DNA of 64,000 nucleotides from Deltaproteobacteria bacterium (GCA_020632695.1 JACKFB010000013.1:119-64118); one strand, 5' to 3'; numbered from the stretch's first letter, positions 1 through 6,513 are shown. Numbers and translations are program-made. The notes: generated by a model from the letters alone, not told the origin.

Positions 1-375
1 GCTCACCGCGTTCTCGTTCGCCCCGTCGACGGCCTGCACCTCCTTCAACGGTCCGGGCGCGTCGGCGAGTTGGAGGCCGGCGGCTACCACGGGGATGACA
101 TGGACTCCGGCCCCCCACGCCGCGCCGAGCTCGAACAGCACCCACCCCCGTTGGGCAGCATGCGGAGTCAGCAGACCGACGACGACTCGCGCGGCCCGAA
201 GCTCGGCGCGGAGCTCGGTCGAGGTATGCGCTCCAGCTTCGAGCCCATGACCGTCGACCGAGGTGCACCGAATCGCACCCGCGAGTGCCGGAAGCGCGCA
301 GCGAAGCAACCCTACGAAGCGCGTAGCGAGCGCCTCGTCGTCGTGTGCGTGGCTGATGACGACTTGGATTGGCAT
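1..375 (-). CDS. TIR-like domain protein (5' part only; C-terminus lies beyond window start)
   Basis: Minus-strand ATG at 375 reads MPIQVVISHAHDDEALATRFVGLLRCALPALAGAIRCTSVDGHGLEAGAHTSTELRAELRAARVVVGLLTPHAAQRGWVLFELGAAWGAGVHVIPVV..., matching the bacterial TIR_2 pattern (hhISHAxxD...L..L...G...D...h..G......h......hhhhhS..........E). Third-codon positions are strongly G/C. The frame stays open to position 1, so the ORF track could not list it. The plus-strand ORF 70..384 on the opposite strand looks spurious. Confidence 0.5.
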   Translation of the reverse strand, partial: MPIQVVISHAHDDEALATRFVGLLRCALPALAGAIRCTSVDGHGLEAGAHTSTELRAELRAARVVVGLLTPHAAQRGWVLFELGAAWGAGVHVIPVVAAGLQLADAPGPLKEVQAVDGANENAVS

Positions 376-426
376 AAGTCATGACTCCTTCGATGGGCCG
401 CACACCGCGCGACGGCGTTCGGCGGT

Positions 427-3400
427 CTAGGGCGCGTAGCTGCCGTCTTCGAGGTGGCGGAGGTGGCCGAGGGTGTGGAGGGTGGCCAGGATGTCGGCGA
501 CCTGGGGGGTCTTCGCGTTCTTGAAGGTGCGGGCCAGGGCCTCGGCGGTGGTCGGGGTGGGGTGGGTCTTCAGGGCGGCCTGGACGACCTCGAAGCGCTC
601 GACGATGCCGGCGGGCCAGTCGGGGCGCTCGGCGGGGGTGGCGGGCGCGGCCTCGTCGTCCTCGTCGTCCGCTTCGGCGGCCATGCTGAGCTGGGTCGCC
701 TCCTTCGGAGCCTGGTAGTCGGGGCGCAGATAGCGCACCAGCCCGCGGGCCTCCTCTTCGGCGCGCTCGGCGTTCAGGGCGACCAGGCGCTCCAGCAGCT
801 CCTCGTCGCTCAGCGTCACCGGCCAGCCGTAGGCCGCGAAGACCGCCGCGTCCAGGTCGTCGTGGAGCTTCAGCAGCAGCGAGCAGAGTCCCTGCTCGTG
901 CACCTTCTTGTCCTTGGCCGTCAGCGCCGTGCCCGCCCGCAGCTTCTCCAGCACGTTGTACATGGCCGTCATCGTGAGGTCGGGGTGGGCGGCCTGACGC
1001 GCCTTCCGGTGGGCGTCCAGGGCCTCGGCCTGCTCGCGGATGGCCTGCGCCTGGGTCTCGGTCGGGGCGGGGAAGGGGAAGGGGTCGAAGCAGGGGCCGC
1101 TCTGATATCTGGGTCGGTCTTCCAGGGTGCCTCCTGCGGACAACGCCCATATCAGATGCGGTCGGCTCGAAAGCACGCCCAGCGCGAGTGCGTCGTCGCT
1201 CCCGACCACGTACAGCGAGGCGTCTGGAACGGTGGGTGCGTTCACGAAGACGAATGGCCGGTGCTTTGCGACTTCGGGAGTCACGATGAAGCGGCGCAGT
1301 CCGGCCAGACTACTCCGCATGCGCTGGTTGGAGCGTCCGAAGAGCCACCAGCGGAGCCGCCGCTGTTTGTCGCGGTTCTGCAAGCGCAAGGGTCGGACCG
1401 TGTCGAACACCACCTGATAGGCAGCGGGGTCGTGCCGCCGTGCTGAATCCTCGTCGTATCCGTCGAAGTCGATGACATGGAGGGCGCGGGTTCGCTGAAC
1501 CAGGTCCCTGTTGCTGATGAATGGCTTCACCACTGAGGTTCCGGCCCCAGTGAGACGGTCGACTTCATCGGGCCCAACCAAGAATCCGTCGCCCACCAGT
1601 TTCACCCCTTGCTGGCACATGCCTGCGTTTGCTCGCAGGGCAAGGGCGGCAGTGACGGCGGCGCCGATCGAGACGTCTGGGTGGATTTGTCCTCTGCGCT
1701 CCGAAAGCGCGACCTCGACCTCGCCGTCGGGACCCGGCCGTTCGGCAACGACTTGCGCCAGCGTCCCTTGGTCCGCATCTGCGCTGAACACTGTCATCGC
1801 GATTCGAACCGCAGCCCCATTCGCGCTGTCGACCCAAGGGTGGTCAGGGATGGCGAACAGAAGCGCCCCCTCATCGAGATGGCGCTCCAACACCGCCCGG
1901 TTGAACACCTGCGTGATGCTGTTGGTGGTAACGAATCCGAACCTACGCGCCCGTCCTCCGCGAACTTCTAGTGCGGCCCGCTCCCACCAATACATCACTA
2001 GATCGATCGTGCTGGGCAGTTCTGGATAGGCCGAGCGAAGCGCCTCGACGTAGTCATCGCCCAATGCCACCCTCATTCGCTTGTTGCCAATGTATGGCGG
2101 GTTTCCGACGATGAAGTCGGCCTCCGGCCACTCGGCCTTGCGCGGGTTGGTGTAGCGATAGACCGGCACTCGCGCCGAGTCGTCGGGGACGTCCTTCCCC
2201 GTCACCGGGTGCTTCTTCATCGTCTCGCCGTCCCAGCGGGTCACCGGCGCGCCGTGCTCGTCGAGCACCAGCTCCTCGGCGTCCCAGGCCAGCACGGCGT
2301 CGCGGTGCTCGATGTTGTGGAAGTCGCGCAACACGGGCTCGGCCGGGGCGACCTTGCCGTGCTGGCGGTAGTGCCACTGCAGGTAGCCTATCCACAGCAC
2401 CAGCTCGGCGATGGGCACGGCTCTGGGGTTCTTCTCGATGCCCAGGAACTGGTGCGGGTCCACGGTGGCGCCCGCCAGGTCCAGGGCCTGCTTGGCAAAC
2501 CCTATGTCGGCCAGGGTCTCGATGACCTCGCCCTCGAGCCGCTTCATGTGCTCCAGGGTGATGTAGAGGAAGTTGCCGGTGCCGCAGGCCGGATCCAGGA
2601 CCCGGGTCTGGCAGAGCTTGCGGCGGAACCCGTTGAGCAGCCCGAGAGCCTCCTTGCGCCACGCGGCGAGCTGGTCCTTGCGCTTGCTTCTCTTGGCCAA
2701 CAACGCGCTCGCCGCCGCCTTGACGTTCTGCCAGTCCTCGCGGAGCGGCTCGATGACCGTCGGGAAGACCAGGCGCTCGACGTAGGCGCGCGGCGTGAAG
2801 TGGGCGCCCAGGCTGTGGCGCTCCTTGGCGTCGAGCGCGCGCTCCAGCAGCGTTCCGAAGATCGCCGGCTCGACCTGGCTCCAGTCGGAGTTCGCCGCCG
2901 CGATGAGCAGGTCGATCTGCGGGGTGTCCAGCGGCAGCGCCGAGGCGTCGTGGAAGAAGCGCCCGTTGAAGCGCAGCACGGTCTGGCGGAGCGCCGCCGA
3001 GAAGCCGCCGCGGTCCATCTCGCGCCACAGGGCCTCCAGCATGCTGGCGAGGCCCTGGGGGTTGTCGCGCATGTCGGTGAGCAGGCGCGTGAAGCTGTGT
3101 TCGGGGAGCAGCCCCACATCCTCGGCGAACATGGTGAAGATGCAGCGCATGAGGAAGTCGGCGACCGGCTCGGCGCCGTGCTGTTGTTTCTCCAGCGAGG
3201 TTGCCAGGGCGGCGAGGCGCTCGGCGACGGCGGTGGTGACGCGGGCGGCGTGGCGGCTCGGGTCGAGCGCCATCGGGTCCAGCCAGATGGAGCGCAGGCG
3301 CTGGCGGACGGCCTCGCTCTCGAGGTCTTCGAGCAAGAACCGGTGGCTCTGCGGGTCGGGGAAGGGCAGGTAGGCCTTCCCGTCGCGGGCGAAGTTGGCG

Positions 3401-3885
3401 TAGAGCGCGAAGGCGTGACCGACGTCGACCACGACCAGGAAGACCGGCCACTCAGGCAGCGCGCGGGCGTACTGCGCGGCCTGGCCGTAGGCGCGCTCCA
3501 TGGCGAGCGACCAGGCGGCGGTACCGCGGACGGCGGCGCCGCGCTTGTGGCGGATGGGGGCGGCCAGGGGCACCGAGGGGACGGGCAGGGCGCCGGGTGA
3601 CTCGGCGCCCTGCTTGGCCTCCAGCACGAAGCAGCCGCGCTTGTAGAGGTCGATGCGGCCGCTGCTGGTGCTGCCGTCGCCGTGCTTGAAGGTGACGTCT
3701 TTTTCGAAGACGTAGGTGTTCTCGGCGGGGTCCTCGCTGGCGACCTTGGGGTCCGGCAGCGGGAGGTCGAGCAGGGTGCACAGCTCGCGAGCGAAGGACT
3801 GCGCGTTGCCCAGCTCCGAGCCGCCCGAGGCGCGCCAGCGGGTGATGAAGGCTTGGACGGCCGGGGGGTCGGGGGTGGGGGGCAT
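427..3885 (-). CDS. Type IIG restriction-modification enzyme / N6-adenine DNA methyltransferase, MmeI family (or BREX PglX-like)
   Basis: ORF 427..4218. The first 111 codons are Pro/Arg-rich low complexity, so the likely start is the ATG at 3885 (MPPTPDPPAVQAFITRWRAS...). The N-terminal nuclease-like motif RIDLYKRGCFVLEAKQG fits D-x9-ExK. SAM motif I is DPACGTGNFLY. Motif IV is FIVGNPPYIG (NPPY, N6-adenine methylase). A ~450 aa C-terminal target-recognition region follows. Single-chain architecture of about 1150 aa. Confidence 0.8.
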   Translation of the reverse strand: MPPTPDPPAVQAFITRWRASGGSELGNAQSFARELCTLLDLPLPDPKVASEDPAENTYVFEKDVTFKHGDGSTSSGRIDLYKRGCFVLEAKQGAESPGALPVPSVPLAAPIRHKRGAAVRGTAAWSLAMERAYGQAAQYARALPEWPVFLVVVDVGHAFALYANFARDGKAYLPFPDPQSHRFLLEDLESEAVRQRLRSIWLDPMALDPSRHAARVTTAVAERLAALATSLEKQQHGAEPVADFLMRCIFTMFAEDVGLLPEHSFTRLLTDMRDNPQGLASMLEALWREMDRGGFSAALRQTVLRFNGRFFHDASALPLDTPQIDLLIAAANSDWSQVEPAIFGTLLERALDAKERHSLGAHFTPRAYVERLVFPTVIEPLREDWQNVKAAASALLAKRSKRKDQLAAWRKEALGLLNGFRRKLCQTRVLDPACGTGNFLYITLEHMKRLEGEVIETLADIGFAKQALDLAGATVDPHQFLGIEKNPRAVPIAELVLWIGYLQWHYRQHGKVAPAEPVLRDFHNIEHRDAVLAWDAEELVLDEHGAPVTRWDGETMKKHPVTGKDVPDDSARVPVYRYTNPRKAEWPEADFIVGNPPYIGNKRMRVALGDDYVEALRSAYPELPSTIDLVMYWWERAALEVRGGRARRFGFVTTNSITQVFNRAVLERHLDEGALLFAIPDHPWVDSANGAAVRIAMTVFSADADQGTLAQVVAERPGPDGEVEVALSERRGQIHPDVSIGAAVTAALALRANAGMCQQGVKLVGDGFLVGPDEVDRLTGAGTSVVKPFISNRDLVQRTRALHVIDFDGYDEDSARRHDPAAYQVVFDTVRPLRLQNRDKQRRLRWWLFGRSNQRMRSSLAGLRRFIVTPEVAKHRPFVFVNAPTVPDASLYVVGSDDALALGVLSSRPHLIWALSAGGTLEDRPRYQSGPCFDPFPFPAPTETQAQAIREQAEALDAHRKARQAAHPDLTMTAMYNVLEKLRAGTALTAKDKKVHEQGLCSLLLKLHDDLDAAVFAAYGWPVTLSDEELLERLVALNAERAEEEARGLVRYLRPDYQAPKEATQLSMAAEADDEDDEAAPATPAERPDWPAGIVERFEVVQAALKTHPTPTTAEALARTFKNAKTPQVADILATLHTLGHLRHLEDGSYAP

Positions 3886-4102
3886 CGGGACTCCGAGCGG
3901 TCGGGAGCGGCGGACGACTGACTCGAGGGGTCGGCGGCGAGCGTAGGCGAGGGCGGGGACGGGTCGCAAGGGGGCGCGGCGCGGCCCGGCGGTTGGCGGC
4001 CGGGGTGGGGTTGACGGGGTGCGGCGGGGCGTAGGACGCTGGCCCGGAGCCTCCCCATTCCGGGTCGGCTCCGAGCGATTGTCGACGACAAGGAGTGAGA
4101 CG

Positions 4103-4864
4103 ATGGCGGTGAGCAGGACGGACAGGGACCGGCGCATCCTCGGGGACCGGGTGGTCGCCCGGGCTGAGGAGTTCCGTGCCATCGATACGGCGGTCGGGCG
4201 GGTGCTCGACGGGTTCATCGCGCAGCACGTCGCGCTCGAGCAGCGGACGGCGGCGCGGTTGAAGGAAGAGGGCGACGATCAGAAGGCCAGGCGAGCGCGC
4301 GACGAGGCGGCGGGTGACGCGGTGCGGCTCTACACCTGGGCGTACTACCAGGCGCCGGCGATGCTCGGCGCGTCGTGGAGCGACGTGGTCGACGACCGCG
4401 ACATCGACCTGGTGCGGCAGCGGCTCTTCCCGCTCGGCCCGCCGAACGCGATTACCGTCAGCCACCAGCGGACGCTGGACGGCCTCATCCACCTGGGCGA
4501 GGCGCTGGGCCAGGGGGGGCTGGCCTTCCCGGATGCCTTCAAGGGCGATGTCGCCGCGACGCGGGACCGACTCTCGGCCGCTATCGACCGGGTCACGACC
4601 GACGCCGCGGAGACGAACGCGGCCACCGGCGCGCAGCTCGAGACGCGCGAGCGCTGGGACGTCCACTGGCAGGCCCTGCGGGACGTGACGGCGGCCTTTC
4701 TCCGGCTGGCCGGCGAGCTGTCGAGGCACGCCGGGCTCTTTCGGCCGCTCGCCCGCGCGGGTGGGGGCTCTGCAGCCGGCGCGCCGGGAGACGACGAGGT
4801 CACGCCCGGCGCCGACGGGCCGCTGGTGGGTGACGACGGGAGCGCTGTCGGCGCTGCGGTCTGA
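4103..4864 (+). CDS. Hypothetical protein
   Basis: ATG at 4103 is preceded by AGGAG 8 nt upstream (aggagtgagacgATG). Third-codon G/C is high throughout. No recognisable domain. Divergent from the methyltransferase gene. The track ORF 4019..4864 starts slightly earlier. Confidence 0.55.
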   Translation: MAVSRTDRDRRILGDRVVARAEEFRAIDTAVGRVLDGFIAQHVALEQRTAARLKEEGDDQKARRARDEAAGDAVRLYTWAYYQAPAMLGASWSDVVDDRDIDLVRQRLFPLGPPNAITVSHQRTLDGLIHLGEALGQGGLAFPDAFKGDVAATRDRLSAAIDRVTTDAAETNAATGAQLETRERWDVHWQALRDVTAAFLRLAGELSRHAGLFRPLARAGGGSAAGAPGDDEVTPGADGPLVGDDGSAVGAAV

Positions 4865-4914
4865 CGGGCCCCGGTCCTCGGACGTCCGACCGCGGGCCCT
4901 CGCACTGGGGGCAC

Positions 4915-5072
4915 GGCCGGTCGGGCGTCCAACCCGGGGTCCTGCCACGGGGGTGATGGCCGGTCGAGCGTCCAACCCGGGGTCCTCCCACGGGGACAGC
5001 GGCCGGTCGGGGGGTTGGGCCTGGGGTGCTCCCACGGGAGTGACGGCCGGTCGGGCGCTGGTCCTGCACGCG
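4915..5072. repeat. Tandem direct repeat, ~43-bp unit, about 3.6 copies (GGCCGGTCGGGCGTCCAACCCGGGGTCCTGCCACGGGGGTGAT and variants)
   Basis: Read directly in sequence: units begin at 4915, 4958, 5001 and 5045 (partial). Each unit contains an ACCCGGGGT near-palindrome. The region is intergenic. Confidence 0.7.
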
Positions 5073-5728: not shown

Positions 5729-6007
5729 TCACTCCGGAGGCGTCTTCGCTGCCTGATGGTCATCCACGGGTGGCGCCGCCGACCGCGGGTGCAGGTAGGT
5801 CGCCGGGTCGTTCGCCCAGGCCTCGGTCTGGCGGTTGAGCTCTTCGATGTTGCGGTGCTTGTACACCCCCGCCGGGAAGCGGCGCGGGACGAGGCGGGCG
5901 GCCATGGCCTGGACGTACGCGAAGGTGCGGAGGCTCTCGAGGTCATTGGGTCTGCGGTTGTCGGCCGCCTTCATCTCCTCCACGCTGCGGAACTTGCGCA
6001 CCGGCAT
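5729..6007 (-). CDS. Small hypothetical protein (92 aa), translationally coupled partner of the upstream nucleotidyltransferase-fold gene
   Basis: ATG at 6007 (MPVRKFRSVEEMKAADNRRPNDLESLRTFAYVQAMAARLVPRRFPAGVYKHRNIEELNRQTEAWANDP...). It lies 3 nt after the stop of the upstream gene at 6010. Third-codon G/C is very high. Confidence 0.55.
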   Translation of the reverse strand: MPVRKFRSVEEMKAADNRRPNDLESLRTFAYVQAMAARLVPRRFPAGVYKHRNIEELNRQTEAWANDPATYLHPRSAAPPVDDHQAAKTPPE

Positions 6008-6009
6008 GC

Positions 6010-6513
6010 TCAGCCCTCCAAACCGAACGCTTCGGCGAGTCGCGTGGCGTCGACACGGTCCTTGGGGCGGACGGTCGACCGCTTCATCTGGTGGAGCATG
6101 CGGGGGGTCGCCACGCACACGCGCACGCCCTCGAAGGTCTTGAACTCCGCTTCGATGGCCGGGTAGTCGAACGCGTCTCCGAGCTTCGCGAGCAGGTCGA
6201 GGTGAAAGGGGCGTCCTGGCGGGATGTACTGTATCGCGGGGTACTCGCCGCGCATCTCGCTCGCGACGATCTCGTCGACGTTCGGGTCGTCGAAGAGCGT
6301 CCGCAGGGCTTCGCGGAGGCGCGCGATGTTGGTGTCGGTCGGGTCCACTAACAGATCGAGGTCTTCAGTCGCGCGGGCGAGGCCATGCAGGGCGAGCGCC
6401 GCGCCACCGATGACCTTGTAGTCCACCCCATGCTCGCCGAGGGACCTCAGGACCTGCAACATGGCGTCCACTTCCACGCGGCGACGATAGTCGAAGCACC
6501 GGGCCCCTACCAC
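6010..6513 (-). CDS. Minimal nucleotidyltransferase (MNT)-fold protein
   Basis: KVIGGAALALHGLARATEDLDLLVD carries the G[GS]-x9-13-DxD signature of the pol-beta/MNT nucleotidyltransferase fold. 167 aa, followed immediately by a small ORF, giving a toxin-antitoxin-like two-gene layout. Confidence 0.6.
   Translation of the reverse strand: MVGARCFDYRRRVEVDAMLQVLRSLGEHGVDYKVIGGAALALHGLARATEDLDLLVDPTDTNIARLREALRTLFDDPNVDEIVASEMRGEYPAIQYIPPGRPFHLDLLAKLGDAFDYPAIEAEFKTFEGVRVCVATPRMLHQMKRSTVRPKDRVDATRLAEAFGLEG

Follow-up and report, generated by a model that had tools for sequence, protein, structure and literature searches.

At one end of a 64,000-nt stretch of a Deltaproteobacteria bacterium genome (GCA_020632695.1, JACKFB010000013.1:119-64118; in what follows, the window), a complete gene for an MmeI-family type IIG/IIL restriction-modification (R-M) enzyme, hereafter the IIG, is directly followed on the minus strand by the beginning of a gene for a small TIR-domain protein with similarity to SpbK. 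Our analysis leads us to regard them, with good though not full confidence, as two independent single-gene phage-defence modules that adjoin on the margin of a small island of atypical composition. The IIG and the TIR protein are not expected to depend on each other; both genes are members of large, already catalogued families, and their adjacency is no new two-gene system. Direct observation covers the domain identities, the integrity of the motifs, the spacing of the two genes, the non-conservation of the pair and the variability of the position 3′ of IIG genes.

An earlier note on this DNA had singled out the combination of a TIR gene with a type IIG gene as lying outside the textbook arrangements, by implication a meaningful pairing; comparison with related loci did not support this. 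The comparison on the IIG side included 80 loci from GTDB species-representative genomes (relatives 48-56 % identical, flanks of up to 8 kb) and 79 viral-contig loci (~24 close relatives, ~40 MmeI-like proteins at 30-35 % identity, the rest distant methylase-only matches). A hidden Markov model (HMM) search of six-frame open reading frames (ORFs) found no member of the TIR family within 8 kb of the IIG relative in any of the 80 GTDB loci, and none was present near the closest metagenomic relatives with retrievable context (0/4). The gene following the IIG differs from one close relative to the next: two small unknown genes overlapping the stop codon at 72 % identity, a Uma2 nuclease gene at 69 %, a C2-domain gene at 66 % and a phage portal gene at 60 %. 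A clear TIR-family member was likewise absent from all of the ~63 viral-contig loci that hold a true MmeI-like relative; the lone TIR match in the 79 viral-contig loci is weak (26.6 bits) and lies 4.8 kb from a distant methylase-only match. On the TIR side, 88 loci were surveyed (80 metagenomic, 2 of the closest homologues, 3 plasmid and 3 viral), none of which contains an MmeI-like gene (0/82, then 0/6 further). We also found no report in the literature of an MmeI or type IIG enzyme paired with a TIR protein. Overall, the pair is conserved in no related locus examined (~160 on the IIG side, 88 on the TIR side), and the adjacency is unique to the window contig. The features of the locus are as follows.

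1-375, minus strand: 5′ part (codons 1-125) of the TIR_2 / SpbK-like TIR gene, identified by translation and Pfam TIR_2, which continues past the window edge and, after another 39 codons, is cut by the end of the source contig.
376-426, minus strand: intergenic spacer of 51 nt, with the ribosome-binding site AAGGAG at 385-390 (sequence reading).
427-3885, minus strand: complete MmeI-family type IIG/IIL restriction-modification gene, 1152 aa (Pfam, PADLOC, PDB MmeI, identical P0010).
3184-3858, minus strand: N-terminal PD-ExK nuclease domain of the IIG, aa 10-234 (Pfam MmeI_N), with D79-x9-E89-x-K91 encoded at 3613-3651.
1792-2637, minus strand: N6-adenine methyltransferase domain, aa 417-698 (Pfam), with motif I at 2563-2598 and NPPY at 2092-2103.
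1051-2100, minus strand: compositionally foreign middle segment of the IIG, aa 596-945, recognized by third-position GC and a drop in identity; contains the target recognition domain.
1066-1539, minus strand: Pfam MmeI_TRD, aa 783-940 (37.3 bits).
3886-4102, no strand: intergenic interval that separates the IIG gene from the divergently oriented plus-strand ORF; presumed to serve as a promoter region.
4103-4864, plus strand: divergent ORF of 253 aa, with a codon-position GC pattern that fits a plus-strand gene.

The IIG frame runs on the minus strand from the ATG at 3885 to the TAG at 429-427, and a gap of exactly 51 nt separates this stop from the ATG at 375 of the co-oriented TIR gene, as the earlier note had described. 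The TIR gene has its own ribosome-binding site, AAGGAG (390-385), 9 nt ahead of its start, and its frame is open from there to base 1 (translation MPIQVVISHAHDDE...VLFELGAAWG...), which bears out the minus-strand TIR-like frame (ISHAHDD…VLFELGAAWG) that had been read as running off the window edge. It had been missed by the ORF track, where ORFs leaving the window are not listed. Two proteins deposited from a 163,784-bp contig of a Deltaproteobacteria metagenome-assembled genome (MAG) match these genes exactly: P0010, of 1152 aa, is identical to the IIG, and P0001, labelled 'partial' and 164 aa long, to the TIR protein. Because this source contig stops ~117 nt beyond the left edge of the window, inside the TIR gene, the C-terminus of the TIR protein and the genes further downstream are not in the data. 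Exact-match look-ups with the IIG protein (as 1152 and as 1263 aa), P0001 and P0012 yielded no record by which the contig could be extended. A longer, 1263-aa version of the IIG starting at 4218 was rejected: it would overlap the divergent plus-strand gene, which has the correct codon-position GC pattern for that strand (spanning 4100-4860), the identical deposited P0010 is 1152 aa long, and all homologues align from residues 1-13. Sequence comparison thus confirmed the start at 3885.

A scan of the minus strand of the 51-nt spacer for consensus promoters and terminators returned no terminator-like or promoter-like site, and its predicted RNA fold is no better than that of shuffled sequence (z-score -0.17). 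Given the 51-nt gap, the TIR gene's own ribosome-binding site and the lack of a detectable terminator, the two genes may be co-transcribed. In the divergent region (3886-4102) a sigma-70 scan, of little value in an organism of 74 % GC (the GC content of the window), found nothing, and an Rfam scan of the whole window gave no match.

The large protein combines in one polypeptide the features of the MmeI family, namely a PD-ExK domain, a helical spacer with a gamma-class N6-adenine methyltransferase, and a C-terminal target recognition domain (TRD). All four Pfam domains of the family are matched above the cut-off of 27 bits (MmeI_N 70.7, MmeI_hel 63.2, MmeI_Mtase 107.7 and MmeI_TRD 37.3 bits), the methylase domain also matches Pfam Eco57I (29.2 bits), and the PADLOC model REase_MTase_IIG (PDLC03627) matches end to end with 1509 bits. 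The nuclease motif D79-x9-E89-x-K91 is intact, with D79, E89 and K91 invariant in 30 homologues. Its D-x9-E-x-K spacing equals that of the MmeI nuclease residues D70/E80/K82 (PMC2731913), the two enzymes having been compared by motif spacing. Equally invariant in the 30 homologues are D431, P432, A433, C434 and G435 of methylase motif I (VLDPACGTGNFL, aa 430-441) and N595, P596 and P597 of the NPPY motif (aa 595-598, in the context GNPPYIG). The 10 kb upstream of the gene contain no second methylase. These data agree with the original reading of a type IIG enzyme of ~1150 aa with D-x9-ExK and methylase motifs. The sole solved relative by sequence is MmeI itself (PDB 5hr4; PMC2731913, PMC4833311), matched at E 4e-44 with the best stretch at aa 216-503, a modest direct similarity. 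The order of nuclease, helical spacer, gamma-type methyltransferase and TRD in a single polypeptide is common to both. Unlike MmeI, the window enzyme contains insertions and an additional C-terminal region of ~210 aa, made up of an acidic linker and a conserved terminal domain of ~65 aa without Pfam match. The earlier remark that it is longer than canonical MmeI is correct as far as it goes (1152 versus 919 aa). On the other hand, this length is no peculiarity of the window gene: at least 8000 homologues were found at E<=1e-50 in a word-indexed protein search, all 120 among the matches listed are 1121-1226 aa long, and ~1150 aa is the norm of the very large subfamily represented by PDLC03627. 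Enzymes of the MmeI family work without a separate companion methyltransferase and cleave ~20/18 nt from their site. By analogy with characterised members, we infer that the IIG would methylate a single adenine in just one strand of its asymmetric site and would cut unmodified DNA ~20 bp away when two sites are available.

The IIG gene is a mosaic. GC content at third codon positions (GC3) is 0.96 for aa 1-595 and aa 946-1152 versus 0.74 for aa 596-945, and identity to the three closest relatives falls from ~0.9 to 0.26-0.50 over aa 700-900. Since the dip in GC3 and the fall in identity coincide on the segment that contains the TRD, a recent exchange of the specificity module is probably the simplest reading, and the swap would thus probably have changed the DNA specificity of the enzyme. 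Such exchange is a known diversification route of MmeI-family enzymes (PMC2731913, PMC4833311).

In the small protein, residues 1-125 match Pfam TIR_2 with 42.3 bits (cut-off 28). When its nine closest homologues are combined into a profile, the match to SpbK (PDB 9phb) extends over 138 residues with E 6.6e-14, while every other solved TIR scores E>=1e-3 against the same profile. In the alignment VLFELGAAW pairs with YCLNEMGATW of SpbK, so that Glu82 corresponds to E192, Gly84 to G194 and Trp87 to W197 (SpbK numbering, with the 24-residue tag of the PDB chain subtracted); these SpbK residues were modelled in NAD+ binding or mutated in the structural study of that protein (PMC12847820). Across 78 non-redundant members of the family, S8, H9, S39, V79, F81, E82, L83, G84, A85, W87 and P109 are invariant, and Glu82 of the VLFELGAAW motif, conserved in 78/78, is by its position a candidate catalytic glutamate in the alpha-C region. 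An AlphaFold2 model made from the nine-sequence alignment reached a predicted local distance difference test (pLDDT) score of 85.4 and a predicted template-modelling (pTM) score of 0.83, and Foldseek ranks the TIR domains of SPARTA (TIR-APAZ), SpbK and SARM1 highest against it (probability 1.00). The TIR fold is thereby confidently predicted, and the best structural matches are all NAD+-cleaving TIRs. The protein is a predicted NAD+ hydrolase (NADase), to which both the activity and the mode of activation discussed below would extend by analogy.

SpbK, a single-gene TIR NADase abortive-infection protein of the Bacillus subtilis element ICEBs1 (PMC12847820, PMC11984713), is the best-matching solved protein by profile and among the best by fold, with TM-scores of 0.67/0.70 to the window TIR model. 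The two have in common the SHS... beta-A motif and the E-x-G-A-x-W motif with its catalytic-type Glu. They differ in several respects. Identity in the structural alignment is low (18 %); the R-C-T/S-S-V-x-G stretch invariant in the window TIR family reads I-Y-T-S-S-P-Y-H-G in SpbK; and SpbK places a 4-helix-bundle sensor (residues 1-94) before its TIR domain, while the window TIR domain starts at residue 4, with no N-terminal sensor, so that an accessory domain, if there is one, would have to follow it, past the end of the contig. The deposited partial protein ends in ...ELEDDDD, which resembles the acidic linker preceding the C-terminal domain in two family members (L133, L135). The PADLOC spbK model gave just 17-18 bits, confined to the TIR part. 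Because the TIR domain begins at residue 4 and this match is weak and limited to the TIR part, the window protein is SpbK-like at the TIR level and no SpbK orthologue.

In SpbK, whose trigger is the SPbeta portal protein YonE, clustering of the TIR domains is brought about by the non-TIR domain when it binds to the phage portal (PMC12847820). By analogy, the window TIR protein would be an NAD+ hydrolase or cyclase that stays inactive as long as its non-TIR accessory domain has bound no multimeric phage component; such binding would cluster the TIR domains into composite active sites around the invariant glutamate, and the ensuing depletion of NAD+ would abort the infection.

The family to which this TIR belongs is large (an exhaustive HMMER search of 1.84 billion cluster representatives returned 1690 proteins at E<=1e-30 and 5440 at E<=1e-10) and occurs on plasmids and a few viral contigs. 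Its ~160-residue TIR module is found at the N-terminus, at the C-terminus or centrally in proteins of 164-630 aa, and most members in the metagenomic loci carry C-terminal extensions of 70-210 aa that are mutually unrelated. A few of these accessory regions are CxxC...CxxC zinc ribbons or winged-helix domains, and most are without Pfam match (P0130-P0277; L089-L168). By comparison with SpbK, this is the architecture of a single-protein sensor-effector. All-against-all BLAST of the ORFs within 3 kb across the 80 metagenomic loci revealed no recurrent neighbour except between near-identical contigs, and in a Pfam survey of 96 flanking ORFs (based on the 25 most frequent of 57 families) no family recurs beyond 2-3 members. 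The flanking ORFs are mostly housekeeping genes, with occasional Mrr, NERD, Shedu (SduA_C), methylase and extra TIR genes; a DNA methylase accounts for one of the 96, and neither SIR2, SLOG nor Macro is among the 25 most frequent families.

Two local arrangements were seen in this survey. P0002, at 50 % identity the nearest TIR homologue with available context, is translationally coupled on both sides: its gene overlaps the beginning of a patatin gene (610 aa) and also the gene that precedes it (L001/L002, 699-3157 and 5714-10077); its contig also carries two genes for ~727-aa TIR_2-asparaginase fusions and a free asparaginase gene. On an Agrobacterium plasmid (L171, 2936-3703) and in two metagenomic contigs, L162 (4211-5029) and L166 (4786-5604), the gene immediately upstream of the TIR gene is serine-protease-like. 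The proteins of L171 and L162/L166 are 28 % identical, and this recurrence is confined to those loci; a sub-clade of the TIR family may have a protease partner.

The position 3′ of the IIG gene was surveyed in relatives (loci L007-L088 and L169). In 34 of 82 genomic and metagenomic loci a co-oriented ORF of >=100 aa begins within 130 nt of the IIG stop, and several of these overlap the stop codon by 4-23 nt. By BLAST the 34 tightly linked ORFs fall into 32 unrelated groups. Families recognized there by Pfam and PADLOC include HipA_2 (twice), Mrr (twice), Fic/SoFic, AbiEii, PLDc_2, Uma2, PD-T4-1, PDC-S02/S08 and a C2 domain, together with an occasional housekeeping gene. None of the 37 ORFs 3′ of IIG relatives encodes a TIR of any kind by Pfam and PADLOC. 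A 307-aa gene of a Lysobacter MAG (L071, 11534-12457), which overlaps the IIG stop by 4 nt, was the sole TIR-like candidate and was rejected: its DUF4062 match is borderline (24.3 bits, cut-off 24.7), and profile comparison shows no similarity to the window TIR family. The position is variable and rich in defence and toxin genes, as expected in defence islands; it looks like a variable cargo site, of which the window TIR gene is one more occupant.

With respect to mobility, the 60 %-identical IIG relative (L170/L174) is surrounded by phage-like DNA that contains Phage_portal, Mu_F-like and Tad2-like (anti-Thoeris family) genes. Some 24 close relatives of the ~1150-aa IIG subfamily are on IMG/VR viral contigs (L175-L197), and this subfamily is therefore often phage- or prophage-borne.

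Several points weigh against treating the two genes as independent defence modules. The short gap, the co-orientation and the absence of a visible terminator would allow expression as an operon and a degree of functional interplay. The TIR gene is cut off by the end of the contig, so that its C-terminal region and any genes beyond lie outside the data. Neighbours of the TIR family are just occasionally defence genes, and the defence role rests mainly on the similarity to SpbK and on the variable architecture. Finally, the neighbour surveys relied on crude ORF calling, and many of the metagenomic contigs are short (1-5 kb). One rival explanation is a guard-type coupling, in which the TIR protein would be a second-line effector of the IIG, much as PrrC serves the type Ic enzyme EcoprrI; held inactive by the IIG, or sensing its state, it would respond to a phage anti-restriction protein by depleting NAD+ and killing the cell. 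We consider this quite unlikely. It draws on the 51-nt gap, the shared orientation and the lack of a detectable terminator or promoter, on the toxin- or abortive infection (Abi)-type genes (HipA_2, Fic, AbiEii, Mrr) often found 3′ of IIG relatives, some of them overlapping the stop, and on the fit with a general layout of R-M plus back-up effector, for which PrrC-EcoprrI is the precedent (PMC1484252, PMC3458546). That system, an anticodon nuclease in a type Ic R-M locus, resembles the window in that a potentially suicidal effector stands co-oriented beside an R-M gene. However, its effector is of another family, and prrC is always linked to R-M (PMC3458546), whereas the TIR family lacks an MmeI-like gene in 88 loci and has mostly housekeeping neighbours. 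An R-M guard would be expected to come from an effector family consistently linked to R-M; here an MmeI-like gene is found in 0/88 loci and a methylase in 1/96 ORFs. Moreover, no IIG relative examined carries a clear member of this TIR family, and the genes 3′ of IIG relatives have no common domain able to dock on the IIG. A more general version, in which the TIR gene is co-transcribed with the IIG as a back-up and the whole ~1150-aa IIG subfamily is laid out with an exchangeable 3′ suicide or toxin gene triggered when restriction fails or is inhibited, strikes us as slightly less probable still.

In another reading the TIR gene opens a system of several genes, either Thoeris-like or pairing the TIR with an effector, for instance a patatin phospholipase; the other genes would be located past the end of the contig, and the IIG would be a mere neighbour. 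This is unlikely in our view, if somewhat less so than a coupling to the IIG. The contig does stop inside the TIR gene, P0002 overlaps both its patatin neighbour and the gene upstream, a serine-protease-like gene precedes the TIR gene in L171 and L162/L166, and PADLOC ThsB1 gives a weak match (27 bits, E 8e-7) to a protein that is, like Thoeris ThsB, a small TIR-domain protein. Yet Pfam ThsB_TIR stays below its cut-off (15 versus 21.2 bits), the family profile fits single-gene SpbK far better than any other solved TIR, and many family members have a variable accessory domain of their own, in the manner of single-protein sensors. No neighbour family recurs across the 80 loci, SIR2, SLOG and Macro being absent from the 25 most frequent, and a ThsA-type partner was seen neither in the window nor recurrently around family members. 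That the TIR protein is no defence NADase at all, but a scaffold, signalling or nucleotide-processing protein serving a housekeeping or regulatory function and present at this site by chance, is very improbable. The mostly housekeeping neighbours of the family, the winged-helix or zinc-ribbon C-terminal domains of some members, possibly regulatory, and a weak match to Nuc_deoxyrib_tr (E 0.035) would be in its favour; it is opposed by the invariant glutamate at the NADase catalytic position, the E-x-G-A-x-W motif common to SpbK, the active NADase TIRs among which the best structural matches are found, the extreme variability of accessory domains typical of conflict systems, and the occurrence of members on plasmids and a few viral contigs. 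As for a bacteriophage exclusion (BREX) or other PglX-based system with the large protein as PglX, this reading is effectively refuted. PglX is a methyltransferase that lacks a nuclease domain and is encoded together with brxC, pglZ and brxL. PglX and BREX models reach only 17-31 bits (PADLOC PglX 31, NCBIfam BREX methyltransferase 17-19), a weak local similarity of the methylase core. The NCBIfam scores are far under the cut-offs of 400-900, the full-length IIG model scores 1509 bits, the MmeI_N nuclease domain has an intact D-x9-E-x-K, and no BrxC, PglZ or BrxL is encoded in the 10 kb upstream of the IIG. The initial observation that no BREX partners flank the gene within the window is in line with this, the next genes upstream being the divergent ORF, an AbiEii-like ORF and housekeeping genes.

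For the divergent ORF (4103-4864), Pfam and PADLOC gave no match and the fetched loci no homologue, and for this reason it was not counted as part of a system. Just past it lies a non-coding 43-nt tandem repeat (4878-5057, 4.2 copies, 75 % matches, consensus TCGGGCGTCCAACCCGGGGTCCTCCCACGGGGGTGACGGCCGG), with no further occurrence in the window. An AbiEii-like nucleotidyltransferase ORF (6010-6513, minus strand; Pfam AbiEii 31.5 bits, covering only profile positions 19-88 of 238) stands directly downstream of a molybdopterin oxidoreductase gene, and after it the codon-position GC pattern runs on in another minus-strand frame (5729-6118); the two frames could represent a toxin gene with a frameshift or a pair of short genes. 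Further upstream are housekeeping genes (molybdopterin oxidoreductase, TauD-type dioxygenase, dihydroxy-acid dehydratase), and the upstream part of the window contains no ThsA-type gene (SIR2, Macro or transmembrane with SLOG). Compared with host genes (GC3 0.92-0.97), the TIR gene (0.78) and the TRD segment (0.74) are compositional outliers, and the leftmost ~6.5 kb looks like a small defence island at the contig end.

A functional pairing would amount to a new form of layered defence, joining DNA restriction to immunity by NAD+ depletion; the evidence points away from this, both families being large and catalogued and the adjacency confined to the window contig. The locus is of modest value in other ways. 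The window IIG is a clean example of TRD exchange, seen in both composition and identity profiles, and the highly variable, defence-rich 3′ position and the viral-contig occurrence of this MmeI subfamily are by-products of the survey. The SpbK-like TIR module, for its part, defines a large, accessory-diverse family that could be mined for new phage sensors.

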